Of a stretch of 64,000 bases of DNA, positions 6,784-58,116 are shown in pieces. The DNA is from Lysobacterales bacterium. GTDB lineage: Bacteria; Pseudomonadota; Gammaproteobacteria; Xanthomonadales; Xanthomonadaceae. The stretch covers positions 31,542-95,541 of the forward strand of contig JBBSJP010000015.1 of assembly GCA_038257155.1 (NCBI GenBank), given 5' to 3'. Under the pieces are notes generated by a model. The model had not been told where the DNA came from, did no database searches, and worked only from the letters and a program-made list of their open reading frames with translations. The stretch's first letter is position 1, and every line of letters begins with the position of its first letter. The translations under genes were made by a program, and so were the position numbers.

Positions 6784-6939
6784 CACACTCCTTGCACAAC
6801 GCACACCCGCGAATTGCGCGTTGCGGAGCAGGATCAAGGAACGAAGGCAGTCGCCCGCGCACGGGCGACGACTCCGTGCCGTCGCCCACCGCAACGCGCG
6901 CCGTGCGCGGCGCACCGACCTGTGGTCGACACGCGGCGC

Positions 6940-7115
6940 GCCCTGGACCGGTCTCCGGACTTGCAGGGCAGGCAGGCACTGGGCCTGGCTGGTGTCCGCC
7001 GTCTTCCCGGGAGCATTCCCAGTGACGTTTGGCGGACTACGCCTGCTTACCGTTGCGGGGGCAGTGCCGGACTCTCACCGGCTTCCCGAGCACCCGGGGC
7101 GGCGTGGAGTCTAGG
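6940..7115 (-). promoter_or_regulatory. Cobalamin (B12) riboswitch in 5' leader of the TonB receptor gene
   Basis: Minus-strand sequence reads ...GGGAAGCCGGTGAGAGTCCGGCACUGCCCCCGCAACGGUAAG...GUCACUGGGAA...AGCCAGGCCCAGUGCCUGCC. This matches the conserved cobalamin-riboswitch core (GGUGAGAGUCC, CUGCCCCCGCAACGGUAAG) and a B12-box-like element. Confidence 0.75.
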
Positions 7116-7137
7116 CGAAATCCATTGCACCTGTCAC

Positions 7138-31121: not shown

Positions 31122-32252
31122 ATGATCGAGACGAGCATGCCTGCGGATCGGATCCTGCCGCCAGACTGGTTGCCCGCGGCGCTGGTCAGCAGCTGGAATT
31201 TTCTCGCCACATATCCCGTGGCACTGGCCTTGATCGTGTTGTTGATCGGCATCGGCATGGCCGTACTCGGTCGCGTCTTCGTGCTGTACTGGGGTGGCAA
31301 GCTCGCCCGTCGCGCGAACGCGGACCTCGGCCCGCGGCTGCTGCGGATCTGCGCCAACGTAGCGGCCTTGCTGCTGGCCTACTTCGCCATGGTGGTCGCG
31401 ATCCGGATCCTCGGCCTGCCGGAGGGTGTCGAGCGTAATCTGATTCGCGTCCTGCTGAGCCTGTTGATCCTGCGACTGATCGTATCTGCGATGCGCGCCA
31501 GCCACATTGGGCTGGAAATTCTGGGACGCATACGCGACCGATTCAACATCGTCGAGGAGCGCACCATTCCGCTCTTCGATCTGGTCAGCACCCTGCTGAT
31601 CATCGGAGCCGCGGCCTACACCCTGCTGATGGTGTGGAACATCGACCCCACTGCCTGGCTGGCTTCGGCCGGCGTGGTCGGCATCGCGGTGGGTTTTGCC
31701 GCGCGCGACACCCTGGCCAATCTGTTCGCCGGCTTCTTCATCATTGCCGACTCGCCCTACAAGCTCGGCGATTACATCGTGCTCGATTCGGGCGACCGCG
31801 GCGAAGTGACCAAGGTCGGCATTCGCTCCACCCGCTTGCTGACCCGCGACGACGTCGAAATCACGGTGCCGAACGCGGAAATGGCCAATGCCAAGATCTT
31901 CAACGAGTCCGGTGGACGCTGGGTCAAGTTTCGCATCCGGATCAAGGTCGGCGTGGCCTACGGTTCAGACGTAGACGAGGTCGTCGCGCTGCTGGAGCGC
32001 ATCGCTAGTGAGCACGACAACATCTGTCGCGAGCCCGAGCCGCGCGTGCGCATGCGCGGATTTGGCGATTCCAGCCTGGACTTCGAACTGCTGTGCTGGG
32101 TCAATCACCCATCCGAACGCGGCCTGGTGACGCACGAGCTTTACATGCACATCTACAAGGAACTGGGTCGCGCCGGCATCCGAATCCCGTTCCCGCAGCG
32201 CGATGTGTGGATGCGCGATGCCGGTCCCGGAGTGGCGCTGGAACGAGACTGA
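31122..32252 (+). CDS. Small-conductance mechanosensitive channel (MscS family)
   Basis: ATG 31122 with upstream GAGAGGGG RBS. Three TM segments. MscS core (GFAARDTLANLFAGFFIIADSPYKLGDYIVL...GEVTKVGIRSTRLLTRDDVEITVPN). Confidence 0.85.
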   Translation: MIETSMPADRILPPDWLPAALVSSWNFLATYPVALALIVLLIGIGMAVLGRVFVLYWGGKLARRANADLGPRLLRICANVAALLLAYFAMVVAIRILGLPEGVERNLIRVLLSLLILRLIVSAMRASHIGLEILGRIRDRFNIVEERTIPLFDLVSTLLIIGAAAYTLLMVWNIDPTAWLASAGVVGIAVGFAARDTLANLFAGFFIIADSPYKLGDYIVLDSGDRGEVTKVGIRSTRLLTRDDVEITVPNAEMANAKIFNESGGRWVKFRIRIKVGVAYGSDVDEVVALLERIASEHDNICREPEPRVRMRGFGDSSLDFELLCWVNHPSERGLVTHELYMHIYKELGRAGIRIPFPQRDVWMRDAGPGVALERD

Positions 32253-51927: not shown

Positions 51928-52893
51928 ATGAACGAAAGCACGCACGATGGACAGGTTGTCGAGGCCGGGCGCACGCTTGCACAGGCGGTGATCCAGGATC
52001 GAATGGAGGTGCTCAAGCGGGGGGCCTCACCCGGCGTAACAATGGCGGCACCTGGCGGGGCAGTCACGCTGGAAGCTCGGTCCGTCGGACCCGCAGGCCG
52101 CATCGCCATGGCCGCGGCTCGTCCCCGCGGATACCTGATTGCGGAAGGCGACAGCTGGTTCGACTACCCGCGGTCCGACGTGCTGGATGTACTGGAAGAC
52201 GACCACGGTTATCGCGTGGAACGTTTGGCACACGGCGGGGACACAGTTGAAGACATGGCATTCAACGAGTCGCAGATCGGCGCACTGGCAAAGCGCTTCG
52301 AGCGACTTCTTCAGGACCGCAGGCCGGTCGATGCGGTACTTCTGTCGGGCGGCGGCAACGACATCGCCGGCAACGAGTTCAGCATGTTGTTGGAGCACGC
52401 CAGTTCGGGCAAGGCAGCCATCAACGCGGTAATCGCCGAGCAGGTGATCTATGGGCGCATCCGGGACGCCTTCCTTCGGATCATCGGTACTGTGAACGCG
52501 ATCTCCGAAGCCTACCTGGATCGTCATGTGCCCATCATCCTCCACGGCTATGGCTATCCCGTGGCCGACGGTCGCGGGTTCCTGGGAGGCGCCTGGTTTC
52601 TGCCCGGTCCATGGCTTGGCCCAGGCTTCGAACGCAAGGGGATTAGCGATTCGATTGTCCGCCGCCAGGTTATGCGAAGCCTGATGGACGACTTCAACGC
52701 AATGCTCTCTGCTCTGACGAGCGTGCCCGATCTCGATGGCGTGGTGAGTTACGTCGACCTTCGCGATCTGCTGTCCGACGACCTGGCGAACTATCGTGAC
52801 GATTGGGCGAACGAATTGCACCCGACGCAGTCAGGTTTTCGTCGAGTGGCGGCAAGCATCGCAGCCGAAGTTGAACGACGCACCGAAAGCTGA
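51928..52893 (+). CDS. SGNH/GDSL-family hydrolase without signal peptide
   Basis: ATG 51928. GDSx block LIAEGDSWFDYP, GGGND block (VLLSGGGNDIAGNEF), C-terminal DxxH-like block (WANELHPT). 321 aa. Confidence 0.7.
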   Translation: MNESTHDGQVVEAGRTLAQAVIQDRMEVLKRGASPGVTMAAPGGAVTLEARSVGPAGRIAMAAARPRGYLIAEGDSWFDYPRSDVLDVLEDDHGYRVERLAHGGDTVEDMAFNESQIGALAKRFERLLQDRRPVDAVLLSGGGNDIAGNEFSMLLEHASSGKAAINAVIAEQVIYGRIRDAFLRIIGTVNAISEAYLDRHVPIILHGYGYPVADGRGFLGGAWFLPGPWLGPGFERKGISDSIVRRQVMRSLMDDFNAMLSALTSVPDLDGVVSYVDLRDLLSDDLANYRDDWANELHPTQSGFRRVAASIAAEVERRTES

Positions 52894-52969: not shown

Positions 52970-55318
52970 ATGAAGAAGCGAGCCACTCCGAAAGACAAGC
53001 CCGCAAAACCGGTCGTTGCGAAATCGACCGCTGGCAAGGTTTCTGGCAAGGCAGCACCGGCCAAGAAGACAGCGGGAAGGATTGCGCCCAAGCCGTTCAG
53101 CGGCGTCAAGGGCTTGCAGAAGCAGGCGATAGTCGAGGCGTTGGCGAGCCAATTGCTCAAAGCCTCCAAAGCCATAGTCCAGACCTTGGCGGTCGCGGGT
53201 CGAAAGAGCGACGTGCGTTCGTTGGTGGTCGGGCCGCTCGACATGGCGAGGTTTGGCAAGGACGCGCGACTGGTCCTGAACCTGGATTACCGAATCCTGC
53301 CGTCGGGCAAAGTGAGCCTTGAGGATTCCGAGTCTCTGCGTCCGTCGGTACAGGTGCTTGAGGGAGACGATTGGAGCGACCTTCCCGCCCAGGTGACGTC
53401 ATATCTTGCTGACACTGCGGCCTCGTCTCCGGTGTTCGCGATGTCCGATGTCGATTCTGGCGTTGAGGCCGAGTCCGACGATACCCGCGAATCCATGCCC
53501 TTGCCCGCGGTGGCAAAGCTTTGTACCCGTATCGGTACCAGTGCGCCGGCCACGATCGAGCAACTGGTAACCTCCGATGTGGCGGTGGCCGCGTCGATGG
53601 ATCCGCGCCTTCAGCTGGTGATGCTCAATCGTCGCAGCGGCAAGCACTCCGCCGCGACGTCCTCGACCGGCGAGGGCGAAGTTGCTGTGATCGCGAAAGT
53701 CACGGATGCAGATGCTTGGATCGAAACGGATGATGTATTCACGGGTGCCGATCTTGGCCCGGCACCCGACGGCGCACACATAGTGACCGCACGGATTCCG
53801 ATCCGGCGGATCGCGGAGATTCGGCGCCTGCCCTTCGTCCAGAGTTTGAAAGCCTCGTATCCCGTTCGCGGGCAGCTGAGAGCGACCCTCAGCGCCATGG
53901 ACGCGTCGTCGCGGGCACTCGGGCCGCGCGATCCTGACGGCGGCGCTGGGGTTGTCATCGGGATAGTGGACTTCGGCGGTGATTTCGCGCACCGCAACTT
54001 CCGTCATGTCGATGGTACAACGCGGCTGCTGGCCTTGTGGGATCAGAGCGGTGAGTCCAACGCCGACAGCCCCTTCGGCTACGGTCGCGTCTTCTGGCCA
54101 GACCAGATCGACGCGGCACTGTCCACGCCACATCCTCACTCGGCCTTGGGATATCGCCCGGAAGCCCTGGCGCATGGCACGCACGTGATGGACATTGCGG
54201 GCGGCAACGGAGAGGGAACGGGATTGCCAGGCCTTGCGCCAAAGGCTGACCTCATCTTCGTGGAAGCGGCTGCGTCCGATGTGGAATGGGAGGGACCGGA
54301 TGGTGTCGGCCAACACTTCGGCGATTCGGTGCAGATACTGGAAGCGGTACGCTGGATCTTCGATCAGGCGGGTGACCGGCCCTGCGTGGTCAACCTCAGC
54401 CTGGGCACGAACGGTGGCCCGCACGACGGAACCTCCCTGGTAGAAATCGGGCTGGACGCGATGTTGGGCGAGGCACCCAATCGAGCCATCGTGGTCTCTG
54501 CGGGCAACGCCCAGGAGGACGGCGTGCATGCGATGGACACGATTCCTGCCGAGGGTCAGTACGACCTGCACTGGCGAGTCGATCTGCCAGGCGAATGCGA
54601 ACTCGAGCTGTGGTACCCGGGCGCGGAGCGATTGACTGCCAGCCTGATCGCCCCGAATGGACAGGAGTTGCTGCAGGTCGCGCCGGGCGATTCCCGATCC
54701 TTGACCACGCCGGGTGGCAAACCGGCGGTTTTCGCTGCCAACCGTTTGCATGATCCCAACAACGGCGACAACCTCATCGGGATCTGGCTCTCCGGAGGTT
54801 TGCCTGCGGGGCAATGGACACTCAGGCTGACGTCTTCTTCAACGCGGACTGTCGCGTTCCATGCATGGATCGAGCGCAATGACGAGGCGCAGGCGAGCTT
54901 CGTCAATCCAACGGTCTCGCACCTGCTGGGCTCGATTTCGACTGGCCGGAACACCCTCGTGGTTGGATCTTTCGATGCGCACAAGAAGGCCTTGCCGATC
55001 TCGCGTTTTTCCGGCTCAGGGCCCACCCGCGATGGGCGAGAGAAGCCGGAGCTCTCCGCGCCCGGCCACAATGTGTCGGCAGCCCGCTCGCGAACCCGTA
55101 CTGGCCTCACCCGAATGTCAGGCACCAGCATGGCAGCGCCGGCCGTTTCCGGACTGGCAGCTCTGGTGCTTGCGAAAGCCGCGCGAGTGGGACAATCGCT
55201 CTCGGCGGCTGAGCTTGGAAGGCAGGTGCTCGCCAACCTCGCGAAGCACCCGCAGGTGGCTGCCAACGCCTGGCACCCACAGTTTGGTGCCGGCCTTGCC
55301 TCCGGCGACGCCGTCTGA
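52970..55318 (+). CDS. S8 subtilisin-family serine peptidase with Lys/Ala/Pro-rich N-terminal tail; no signal peptide
   Basis: Catalytic triad regions VVIGIVDFGGD (Asp), ALAHGTHVMDIAGG (His), SGTSMAAPAVSGLAALV (Ser). N-terminus MKKRATPKDKPAKPVVAKSTAGKVSGKAAPAKKTAGRIAPKP. Confidence 0.85.
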   Translation: MKKRATPKDKPAKPVVAKSTAGKVSGKAAPAKKTAGRIAPKPFSGVKGLQKQAIVEALASQLLKASKAIVQTLAVAGRKSDVRSLVVGPLDMARFGKDARLVLNLDYRILPSGKVSLEDSESLRPSVQVLEGDDWSDLPAQVTSYLADTAASSPVFAMSDVDSGVEAESDDTRESMPLPAVAKLCTRIGTSAPATIEQLVTSDVAVAASMDPRLQLVMLNRRSGKHSAATSSTGEGEVAVIAKVTDADAWIETDDVFTGADLGPAPDGAHIVTARIPIRRIAEIRRLPFVQSLKASYPVRGQLRATLSAMDASSRALGPRDPDGGAGVVIGIVDFGGDFAHRNFRHVDGTTRLLALWDQSGESNADSPFGYGRVFWPDQIDAALSTPHPHSALGYRPEALAHGTHVMDIAGGNGEGTGLPGLAPKADLIFVEAAASDVEWEGPDGVGQHFGDSVQILEAVRWIFDQAGDRPCVVNLSLGTNGGPHDGTSLVEIGLDAMLGEAPNRAIVVSAGNAQEDGVHAMDTIPAEGQYDLHWRVDLPGECELELWYPGAERLTASLIAPNGQELLQVAPGDSRSLTTPGGKPAVFAANRLHDPNNGDNLIGIWLSGGLPAGQWTLRLTSSSTRTVAFHAWIERNDEAQASFVNPTVSHLLGSISTGRNTLVVGSFDAHKKALPISRFSGSGPTRDGREKPELSAPGHNVSAARSRTRTGLTRMSGTSMAAPAVSGLAALVLAKAARVGQSLSAAELGRQVLANLAKHPQVAANAWHPQFGAGLASGDAV

Positions 55319-55392
55319 GACTGAATCCTTGCTGGCCGCGGAAATTGCACCTGCGTTCGGGGGCGCGTAACGTGGTGCCTGAGGTGACCTGC

Positions 55393-55653
55393 ATGCCCAT
55401 TGATCTTGCCCAACTGATCCTGAGTGATAGTGATACGGAGTCCTCGCCGAGGCTTGGCAGCGGGCGTTTTCATGCCGTGCTGCGACTCCATCACGGCGAG
55501 TCCGTGCCCGAATATGTGCACGTTCGCAGCAAGATTGCCGAAGAATTGTTAACCATCGATTTTTCCGCAGAGGATCTGGATCGCATCACGAATGATCCAC
55601 GGGTGATTTCGGTCGCCCTGGCCAAGCCACTGCAGGCGTTCTCCGAAGGCTGA
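55393..55653 (+). CDS. Small protein resembling a subtilisin propeptide / I9 inhibitor, encoded separately
   Basis: ATG 55393. 86 aa ending ...EELLTIDFSAEDLDRITNDPRVISVALAKPLQ, an I9-like beta-alpha-beta pattern. 74 bp downstream of the S8 gene. Confidence 0.45.
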   Translation: MPIDLAQLILSDSDTESSPRLGSGRFHAVLRLHHGESVPEYVHVRSKIAEELLTIDFSAEDLDRITNDPRVISVALAKPLQAFSEG

Positions 55654-55904
55654 GATTGCTGTTTCACTTCCCGATCCAGGCGGAGGGCATTTCCAGGCGG
55701 TGCCCCGGGTAACCGCTTGCCAGCGGCTCGGCGGAAATCAAACCGAGGCACGCAGACGCCGACCAGACCTGATGCGGCAACTGCTCCTGATGTTCGCGCT
55801 GGGCCTGAGTCGGGCGTTCGCGGGTTCTGGCTCGCGAAGCGATAAACGGAGAAGATGGACGGAGACAGGGCATCCGCCATGTCGATCTTGTTGTGCTGAT
55901 CGAA

Positions 55905-56768
55905 TCAAGGCGGGTCAGCCACCACAGTGTACGGCCGGTCGGGACTGGGCCAGTCTTCCTCACGGTAGCGCAGTGCTTCGAGCGCCTCATGCGCTGCGTT
56001 CAACTCGTTTTCCAACCCGCAGATACGCTCGACCGCGGCACTCACGGATGCGGCTGCTTCCAGCGCCTTGTCGAGAAGAATTTGCACGTCCGTTGATTGC
56101 ACGGCATCAACGCGAAATTCGGCATCGCCGTGGCGCAGGCCCGTCAGGCTCCGCACCAACATCGCGACGTCGCGTCCGCAGTTCCAGAAACCGCCGTCCA
56201 CGCGTCCGATCGTGTCGATATCCACCAGTGTGCCCGGCCAGTCCGGAATCAGGTGGGCCAGGAATTCGAGGCGGTGGACCAGAAACAGGGAGCGGACATC
56301 GCCCTCGCTCTTGAGCAGTGTTCTGGCGATTTCATCGAGGAGAGAGCGGATCGTCAAGGAAGCGAAGCTGACCTCGTTGGAAGCCAAGGCCAGCTTGATC
56401 AGCGCGTTGCGGGACGCCAACAGTCGCTCGATCTCCTGCCGCTGTTCCGACCATCGTTTGGCCGTCAGCGCGATGGCGGCGCGACCCGCCGCGTCTGGCT
56501 GACGCCACTTGGCCAAGCCTGACCCTTCCGGTTCGACAAGCGCCGCCATTCGCGCGTCGATTCGATCGCGACGGGACTCAAGCGCTTCCATCGCCTCTTC
56601 GTCGCCTTCTGCGGCTTGGCGAGCCTCCTTCTCCAGATGCATCAGGTGGTAGTGAACTTCATGAAGTCCGGCGTCCTGATCGCTGCCAGGTGAGCAGGCA
56701 AGCAAGGCGAGACACAGCAGGCAGGTCACGAGGCGACGGACGCCAGGCACTGACACTTCCAACTTCAT
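55905..56768 (-). CDS. Hypothetical lipoprotein (paralog A)
   Basis: Lipobox LLCLALLACS. Helical protein. Confidence 0.6.
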   Translation of the reverse strand: MKLEVSVPGVRRLVTCLLCLALLACSPGSDQDAGLHEVHYHLMHLEKEARQAAEGDEEAMEALESRRDRIDARMAALVEPEGSGLAKWRQPDAAGRAAIALTAKRWSEQRQEIERLLASRNALIKLALASNEVSFASLTIRSLLDEIARTLLKSEGDVRSLFLVHRLEFLAHLIPDWPGTLVDIDTIGRVDGGFWNCGRDVAMLVRSLTGLRHGDAEFRVDAVQSTDVQILLDKALEAAASVSAAVERICGLENELNAAHEALEALRYREEDWPSPDRPYTVVADPP

Positions 56769-57586
56769 GGCGTGGTGCTCCGTTCCGCATTCGAAGTTGA
56801 AGCAATGAGGCGCTCCACGCCAGCATCGACGGACTCGCGCGAGTCATGCATGGCGGGCATCCAGGGCGCCGAGTCCAGGATCGTGCCGATCAGGGGCACG
56901 ATCTGTCGGTGTTCGGCCAGCACCTCAGCCAGGGCGGCTCGCGACCTGGGTCCGCTGATCTGCCGCAGCCCGCGCTCTTCGTCGCCGCTTTCCAGTGCCG
57001 GCAGCAGCATGCCGAGGATGGTCCAGCTTCGCTCCAGTCCCCAGTGGTGGCCGTCGGTTCCACGGATCTCGCCGGTGCGAATGTCGACGAAGTAGGCGGT
57101 CAGCGACTTTGCCATTCTGGCGAGTTCCATGGCCGCGAAGATCTGCCGTGGTTCACCCTGCTCGTGCAGCAGTTGATTGACCAATTCATGCGACGAGTAT
57201 TCGAGCCGTTGCAGGGCTTTCGTCGCCGTATCGCAGGCAGCCGCGAGGGCGATCAGGTCGGACCTCCTGGCCAGCAGAGCGTCGACATGCAATCGAACAG
57301 CCTTCCATTGCAGCTCAAGGTCAGCAGGGCCCATGGCGGGGAATGACTTTGCCAACGCCCATTGCAGATCATCGGCATCGGGCGACCGCACCTGGCCAGC
57401 GAGCAACGACTCTATCCGCTCGCGCCGCAAGGGCAGCGCTCGCAGGGCTGCCTCATCGCCAAGGCTTGCGTCGTGCACTTCCTGCTTCAGACGCAACAAC
57501 TGGTAGCGCAGTTCGCCGATCTCGGGACTTCGGTCGGGGTGCGGTGCACAGCCTGTCAGCGACAAGCCAAGCAAAAACCAGAGCAT
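56765..57586 (-). CDS. Hypothetical lipoprotein (paralog B; start 57586 or 57670)
   Basis: Lipobox MLWFLLGLSLTGC. Shares architecture and motifs with the downstream paralog (LKQEVHDASLGDEAALRALPLRRERIESLLAGQV vs LEKEARQAAEGDEEAMEALESRRDRIDARMAALV). 4-nt overlap with it. Confidence 0.6.
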   Translation of the reverse strand: MLWFLLGLSLTGCAPHPDRSPEIGELRYQLLRLKQEVHDASLGDEAALRALPLRRERIESLLAGQVRSPDADDLQWALAKSFPAMGPADLELQWKAVRLHVDALLARRSDLIALAAACDTATKALQRLEYSSHELVNQLLHEQGEPRQIFAAMELARMAKSLTAYFVDIRTGEIRGTDGHHWGLERSWTILGMLLPALESGDEERGLRQISGPRSRAALAEVLAEHRQIVPLIGTILDSAPWMPAMHDSRESVDAGVERLIASTSNAERSTTP

Positions 57587-57810
57587 GTTGGCCAGATTGG
57601 CGCGCGCGAGCGTGTACAGGGGCGGCAGTTCGACGACTGGCGTACGCGAAAGTCCGTTCCTGTCAGTCATGCAATTCGTGCCTCCAATATCGCTTGGGCG
57701 GACCAGGGCGCTGGGCGCGCTACCGCACAGATGCGGCCCGCATGTCAGTCCATGATTTGTCGACGATGCCGCTGGTGGGTGCAGTGTCGCCGCCGTACCC
57801 GGAGACCGCA

Positions 57811-58116
57811 ATGCGCAAAGTTTTGCTCATTCCGCTGTTGATTCTCATCCCGCTTTCCGGAGTGCAGGCGCTGTCGAGCAGTGGCACCACGCCGGGCGCC
57901 AGCGTGCTGCATGGCGGGCTGGCTCGATGGAGCAGCGCTGAGGTGCAGGAGTGCGATATCCACGACCAGAACACCAATGCTGTCGCCATTCTCGGTGACC
58001 CAGCGCGACTTGCGAGCATCGGTGAGACAGCACCGCAACGGCCGTCTGCGGAAGTCGGTGTGCTCAAGTCCGAAGCCGAGCGCGTCGCAGCCCAGGACGT
58101 TTGCGACAACGAGTGA
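57811..58116 (+). CDS. Small secreted hypothetical protein
   Basis: ATG 57811. Signal peptide MRKVLLIPLLILIPLSGVQA. 101 aa. Confidence 0.5.
   Translation: MRKVLLIPLLILIPLSGVQALSSSGTTPGASVLHGGLARWSSAEVQECDIHDQNTNAVAILGDPARLASIGETAPQRPSAEVGVLKSEAERVAAQDVCDNE

Follow-up and report, generated by a model that had tools for sequence, protein, structure and literature searches.

A small gene beside a CspB-like subtilase gene encodes a propeptide-like protein and candidate protease inhibitor

We analyzed a 64,000-nucleotide stretch of contig JBBSJP010000015.1 from a Lysobacterales bacterium (positions 31,542 to 95,541; hereafter the window) and, within it, a small gene that lies directly downstream of the gene for an S8 (subtilisin-type) serine peptidase. 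The original prediction, made from the sequence alone, was that this 86-amino acid open reading frame (ORF) adjoining a protease gene specifies a separately encoded relative of the I9 propeptides of subtilisins. The adjacency was confirmed: both genes are on the same strand, and 74 bp separate the end of the S8 gene from the start of the small gene. The features of the locus are listed below in window coordinates.

52970–55318, + strand: gene for a 782-amino acid CspB-like S8 serine peptidase (Pfam PF00082, E = 6.5e-29).
53678–53878, + strand: cis prodomain-like domain of the protease, amino acids 237–303, β-α-β-β-α-β by AlphaFold2 secondary structure and homologous to the small-protein family.
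53939–55315, + strand: catalytic domain of the protease with a β-rich, jellyroll-like insert at about amino acids 520–644; predicted triad D334, H402 and S720, oxyanion residue N513.
55381–55386, + strand: Shine-Dalgarno-like sequence GAGGTG, 6 nt 5′ of the ATG, read from the sequence.
55393–55653, + strand: gene for the 86-amino acid free propeptide-like protein, stop codon included, supported by the ORF, its sequence, homologues and the ratio of nonsynonymous to synonymous substitution rates (dN/dS).
55393–55458, + strand: N-terminal 22 residues, with the motif h-D-[LF]-x-x-L (MPIDLAQL in the window protein) followed by a variable linker; disordered in the model.
55465–55620, + strand: I9-like core, amino acids 25–76 (β1, loop, β2, β3, helix, D68-P69, β4).
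55621–55650, + strand: C-terminal tail, amino acids 77–86 (AKPLQAFSEG), with L80 as the putative P4 and F83 as the putative P1 equivalent in an alignment anchored on DPxV.

The small gene starts with ATG and continues for 86 codons to the stop codon. The spacing of the GAGGTG sequence favors the ATG at 55393 as the start over a TTG at 55345, family members likewise start with MPIDL or MxxDL, as does the window protein, and the same small gene was also called in an independent assembly. Its GC content, 55.9%, is lower than that of the protease gene (63.6%) or of the window as a whole (64.6%). Informative pairs gave dN/dS values of 0.10–0.20 by the Nei-Gojobori method. Because homologues occur at the same position across phyla and dN/dS is low, the small ORF can be taken as genuine; 55393–55653 is a real, conserved gene under purifying selection.

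Homologues were collected by an exhaustive phmmer search over 1.84 billion representatives, with the window small protein as the query. At E < 1e-3, this gave 20 matches, comprising the query, 18 small homologues of 76–128 amino acids and one false positive, a 785-amino acid repeat protein (P0124) that was rejected. A word-index homologue search with the single small protein recovered only itself. A profile search of a 5.8-billion-protein collection returned 99 family members, all of 57–133 amino acids and none with a precomputed Pfam domain; the named members among these 99 matches are all called "hypothetical protein" except for two JGI names that are apparently mis-annotations. Searches of Pfam, NCBIfam and PADLOC returned nothing for the small protein.

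Protease homologues were scanned at one genome per species, and 80 loci were fetched. When these 80 S8 loci were scanned with a hidden Markov model (HMM) of the small family, 35 contained a homologue, with scores of 46–98 bits. In these loci the small gene directly follows the S8 gene in the same orientation, the gap between them having a median of 80 bp; one locus is divergent. Hosts belong to the Proteobacteria, Cyanobacteria, Bacteroidota, Acidobacteriota, Chloroflexota, Deinococcota, Myxococcota, Verrucomicrobiota and Actinomycetota, and they include Beta- and Alphaproteobacteria, many Cyanobacteria, Chitinophaga and Niastella (Bacteroidota), and Calidithermus. The pair is also plasmid-borne, for example on pTH2a of Rhizobium sp. 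TH2, where the S8 gene product WP_258163201 is followed by the "hypothetical" WP_258163200. Pairwise distances for the catalytic domain and the small protein are correlated (r = 0.77, a value reached in 0 of 2000 Mantel permutations), and the small protein is the faster evolving of the two, with a mean identity of 31% versus 53% for the catalytic domain. No neighbor besides the small gene and the S8 gene is conserved across the loci. These data indicate that the small family, conserved but so far unannotated, forms an autonomous two-gene module with one S8 clade.

Five loci (L040, L041, L043, L045 and L078) have an S8 gene that is truncated or in two ORFs, and the small gene, where present, is intact; this state of the S8 gene could reflect pseudogenization or assembly error in metagenome-assembled genomes (MAGs). 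The module occurs twice, as L040 and L041, in one Verrucomicrobiaceae MAG.

The partner protease has more than 1169 homologues, with approximately 50%–58% identity over the C-terminal ~600 residues. Neither D334, H402 and S720 nor N513 varies in the aligned sets of 21 and 63 homologues, and the enzyme is predicted to be active on that basis. Among PDB sequences, it matches CspB best (4i0w_B; E = 1.3e-28, or 1.5e-52 by profile). In the AlphaFold model of residues 191–782 (predicted local distance difference test score, pLDDT, 85.3), a β-α-β-β-α-β domain occupies amino acids 237–295, a conserved helix (212–222) sits ahead of it and the insert is all-beta. A Foldseek comparison with CspB gave an E-value of 1e-36 and a template modeling (TM) score of 0.84, CspC and CspA were also among the closest solved relatives in sequence and fold, and the alignments to CspB span the central β-rich insert; the root-mean-square deviation of ~17 Å to uncleaved CspC and CspA is uninformative on domain placement. 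The protein has the Csp-type architecture of an S8 domain interrupted by a jellyroll and preceded by an N-terminal prodomain, and it falls far short of the NCBIfam CspBA and CspC orthology models (101.5 bits versus a cut-off of 1250, and 73 versus 675). The partner is, therefore, structurally Csp-like and not a Csp orthologue. Neither the protease nor the small protein shows an evident hydrophobic signal or membrane-spanning segment, which suggests, from sequence, that both are cytoplasmic. The first 190 residues of the protease (52970–53539) are Lys/Ala/Pro rich, of low complexity and variable in length among homologues, and they contain no recognized domain.

The original prediction proposed structure prediction as a check, and an AlphaFold2 model of the small protein, built from a 19-sequence alignment, does adopt an I9-like fold, with subtilase propeptides as its top structural matches. 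Mean pLDDT is 76.7, rising to ~90 over residues 30–80, and the predicted order of elements is β1 (25–32), β2 (43–47), β3 (52–58), α (59–66) and β4 (71–76), in keeping with the open-sandwich antiparallel β-α-β-β-α-β fold of subtilase propeptides. Foldseek ranked complexes of the Tk-propeptide with subtilisin highest (TM score 0.72 when normalized to the propeptide, probability 1.00, E = 0.02). P39, in the loop after β1, and D68 are invariant, and R45 is present in 51 of 54 sequences. The N-terminal segment (residues 1–22) is predicted to be disordered (pLDDT 47–60), and it carries the motif (window 55393–55428), with L8 conserved in 34 of the 54 sequences and D/E4 in 29. Many members have a longer form, h-D-[LF]-x-x-L-x-K-L-E, as in MPIDLxSLxKLE and MDFSKLxKLE. 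Candidate roles for this motif are as a degron, as a tether or as an additional point of contact with the protease.

The small-family HMM also matches the N-terminal domain of the S8 proteins themselves, with E-values between 1e-7 and 1e-5 for a distant clade of very long S8 fusions and between 1e-3 and 0.06 for the close clade. When the small family (19 sequences) was compared with the N-terminal region of the close clade (21 sequences) by HHalign, the probability was 80.6%; with 54 small and 63 protease sequences, it rose to 88.5% (E = 2.7e-6, score 35.8, 67 columns), and the top score among 20 column-shuffled controls was 13.9. Residues 17–83 of the small protein align with residues ~229–302 of the protease. 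A direct BLASTP comparison of the two proteins was not significant (E = 6.5), though it aligned the correct region, and a profile search of PDB sequences did not reach the Csp prodomains. The protein is linked to I9 by its fold and by homology, at the profile level, to a true N-terminal domain of subtilases, and the small gene is probably an evolutionary copy of the prodomain at the N terminus of its partner protease family. Together with synteny, the predicted fold and profile homology support the description of the product as a separately encoded propeptide-like protein.

The C-terminal string LDRITNDPRVISVALAKPLQ, which the original prediction took to be the end of the protein, is present, but five further residues (AFSEG) follow it. 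The likeness that had been seen there to the C-terminal strand of I9 propeptides was upheld when the tail was placed in register. The C-terminal sequence of the BPN′ prosegment, ...DPSVAYVEEDHVAHAY, was verified, and a gapless alignment on D-P-x-V sets ITNDPRVISVALAKPLQAF of the window protein against LKKDPSVAYVEEDHVAHAY at the end of the BPN′ prosegment, placing F83 on Tyr77 (P1) and L80 on Ala74 (P4). The best PDB sequence match of the family profile, albeit weak (E = 0.12), is to the last 27 residues of the subtilase propeptide 8c4z_A, a chain that ends at the same register as the small-protein tail. Of 54 members, 43 have Leu at position 80, the position three residues further on is I/V/Y/F/A/L/M in 35 of 52, and 26 of 54 members end exactly four residues past L80, that is, at P1′. 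By analogy with these alignments, L80 and F83 may be placed in the S4 and S1 binding pockets. In the protease, the junction between the cis prodomain and the mature enzyme is expected near amino acid 305, as extrapolated from the CspB alignment (query residue 325 corresponds to mature residue 21), and in the cis/trans alignment this junction coincides with the C terminus of the small protein. Given this tail register and the position of the junction, the free protein resembles a prodomain that has already been processed.

On the strength of its fold, homology, tail register, synteny and precedent, we read the small protein as an inhibitor and think it reasonably likely that this free propeptide copy acts on the neighboring CspB-like protease. 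The prodomain of CspB is a folding chaperone that remains bound after autoprocessing, its C-terminal P3–P1 residues block the active site, and when it is supplied in trans it still prevents active-site labeling unless the P3–P1 residues are removed (PMC3567191). POIA1 and Arabidopsis SPI-1, which are free I9-like proteins, are potent subtilase inhibitors. By extension, the S8 protease would fold with the aid of its own cis prodomain, and the free copy, as a separate cytoplasmic protein, would then occupy the same prodomain site. Its four-stranded sheet would pack on the catalytic domain, and the C-terminal tail would run along the substrate cleft so that L80 occupies S4 and F83 occupies S1. 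The small protein would thereby act as a tight, product-like or "temporary" inhibitor, and the intracellular protease would stay inactive until the small protein is displaced or degraded. The binding, the inhibition and the release signal are elements of this scheme that we infer.

Several observations weigh against this interpretation. The window protein has no match to Pfam Inhibitor_I9 at E ≤ 1, only 2 of 19 family members match it, weakly (best E = 0.043), and none of this amounts to a match to PF05922 at its gathering threshold. Because such matches are absent or marginal, the protein is not a recognized I9 member by database thresholds. The Foldseek E-values for the propeptide matches are weak (0.02), and the canonical first helix of I9 is absent from the model, being reduced to a loop with the invariant Pro39. 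The conserved N-terminal motif has no part in the inhibitor model. The protease already carries a cis prodomain able to do the same job, and for six close-clade proteases (L014, L016, L024, L025, L026 and L029), no small gene lies within 6 kb.

The last two observations also bear on an alternative role, that of a folding chaperone acting in trans, in which the small protein would be needed for folding or maturation of the protease and not for its inhibition. In favor of this role, I9 propeptides catalyze folding, the prodomain of CspB is able to act in trans (PMC3567191), and the small protein has the I9-like fold and homology to the cis prodomain described above. Every partner protease, however, has a well-conserved cis prodomain-like domain of its own, and about six close orthologues do without the small gene, so an accessory brake is likelier than an obligatory chaperone, a role we regard as unlikely. 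Within the I9 family, one protein can be both chaperone and inhibitor, and it is the version that replaces inhibition with folding assistance to which we give little credence.

We are similarly doubtful that the small protein is a substrate, decoy or sensor, with the pair operating as a toxin-antitoxin (TA)-like protease/anti-protease system or as a switch triggered by stress or phage. Here, the N-terminal motif would be a degron or recognition site, which would account for a conserved element that is otherwise unexplained, and the substrate-like P4-P1-P1′ arrangement of the tail would be in keeping with it. The autonomy of the two-gene module, which turns up in varied genomic settings and on plasmids, and the lower GC content of the small gene relative to its surroundings also point in this direction, as do the genes for a CHAT protease and a phospholipase D-like protein that flank the module on pTH2a. 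These flanking genes suggest a conflict system at that locus, but they are not general across loci. Among 112 neighbors from 28 loci, PADLOC matched only isolated single proteins, with no enrichment, and most neighbors belong to housekeeping Pfam families. The small protein has no PADLOC match, the protease has only a generic "subtilase" match that is weak and partial (1.1e-20), and no phage homologues of the protease were found. The order of protease followed by inhibitor is also atypical for TA modules. Neither a defence-model assignment nor enrichment in defence islands was found, and the defence-island hypothesis is not supported, with no enrichment among the 112 neighbors and no phage homologues.

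One speculative form of the switch retains the inhibitor: a cytoplasmic subtilase would be restrained by a labile copy of its prodomain, with the N-terminal motif as degron or sensor, and stress or infection would free proteolysis. We think this rather improbable. If true, such a labile-inhibitor switch would be a TA- or abortive infection-like kind of protease/anti-protease system not yet described in bacteria.

It is very unlikely that the small protein is a generic ferredoxin-like or ACT/RAM-like domain, unrelated to the protease and propeptide-like by convergence. Such an origin would have to be reconciled with top structural matches that are consistently propeptides, profile homology to the cis prodomain that far exceeds the shuffled controls, and strict synteny and co-divergence with the protease. 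Finally, a chance ORF in GC-rich DNA can be dismissed: ORFs of 86 amino acids are common in 65% GC DNA, so that length alone says little, and a 129-amino acid antisense ORF (55491–55880), itself without comparable conservation support, overlaps the gene, but this reading is refuted by cross-phylum synteny with S8 and dN/dS far below 1, and the Shine-Dalgarno sequence ahead of the ATG and the confidently predicted fold also contradict it.

In the surrounding sequence, a gene for an SGNH/GDSL-type hydrolase (51928–52893, + strand) precedes the protease gene in the same orientation, 76 bp away, and may be co-transcribed with it in this genome. Downstream, two overlapping paralogous genes on the − strand (55905–56768 and 56765–57811; 287 and 348 amino acids) point toward the small gene; the N terminus of the first is lipoprotein-like (…LLACS), and its product gives a weak PilJ-type match. 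The hydrolase gene and the two downstream lipoprotein-like genes were considered as parts of the module and rejected because they are not syntenic in other loci. Elsewhere in the window, a cobalamin riboswitch (Rfam RF00174, 85 bits) is located at 6929–7129 on the − strand.

The distant S8 clade (L047–L081, for example L068:1106-10341) encodes giant proteins of 1300–2100 amino acids. These have an N-terminal I9-like domain (small-family HMM 1e-5 to 1e-7), followed by S8, PG_binding_1 and Peptidase_M15_4 domains. Upstream of their genes are three conserved genes of unknown function (~330, 200 and 210 amino acids), a PASTA-repeat protein gene and a SARP/BTAD regulator gene. No free small gene was found in the giant-S8 loci, and the clade looks like a distinct, uncharacterized system directed at the cell wall.

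Free propeptide-like subtilase inhibitors are already known from fungi and plants. The closest kin of the window protein are the free I9 (PF05922) inhibitors POIA1 of Pleurotus (PDB: 1v5i), Arabidopsis SPI-1 and yeast proteinase B inhibitor 2, the last of which we take to be a comparable free inhibitor of the propeptide type. Unlike these, the window protein is bacterial and forms an operon-like pair with its presumed target, and this target retains its own cis prodomain; the window protein also has a loop with an invariant Pro in place of helix 1, an extra conserved N-terminal motif and scores below the Pfam I9 thresholds. Limited literature searches found no description of a bacterial, operon-encoded free propeptide inhibitor. 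In the clostridial Csp proteins (CspB, 4i0w; CspC and CspA), prodomain and protease belong to a single polypeptide chain; the module adds a further prodomain copy with a gene of its own, and the hosts of the module, unlike those of the Csp proteins, are mostly non-sporulating bacteria. The small protein shares its fold, the motif of DPxV, strand and tail, and the distance from the motif to P1 with the cis propeptides of subtilisin BPN′/E and Tk-subtilisin, but it is not covalently attached and has no helix 1, and its target is probably cytoplasmic and not secreted. Like protease-based defence or TA modules (IetAS; PADLOC "subtilase"), the pair is self-contained, horizontally scattered and built around an S8 protease. 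In contrast to IetAS-type modules, it lacks an ATPase partner, PADLOC returns nothing for the small protein, and there is neither defence-island enrichment nor a link to phages.

No new principle is involved because the biochemistry would follow established propeptide inhibition. What the locus adds is an unannotated small family without a Pfam domain, found in at least nine phyla and paired with an uncharacterized clade of intracellular CspB-like proteases with more than 1100 members. The pairing offers a natural system in which cis and trans prodomains may compete on one enzyme, and with the small protein named, it becomes testable how these cytoplasmic subtilases stay silent and what function they serve.
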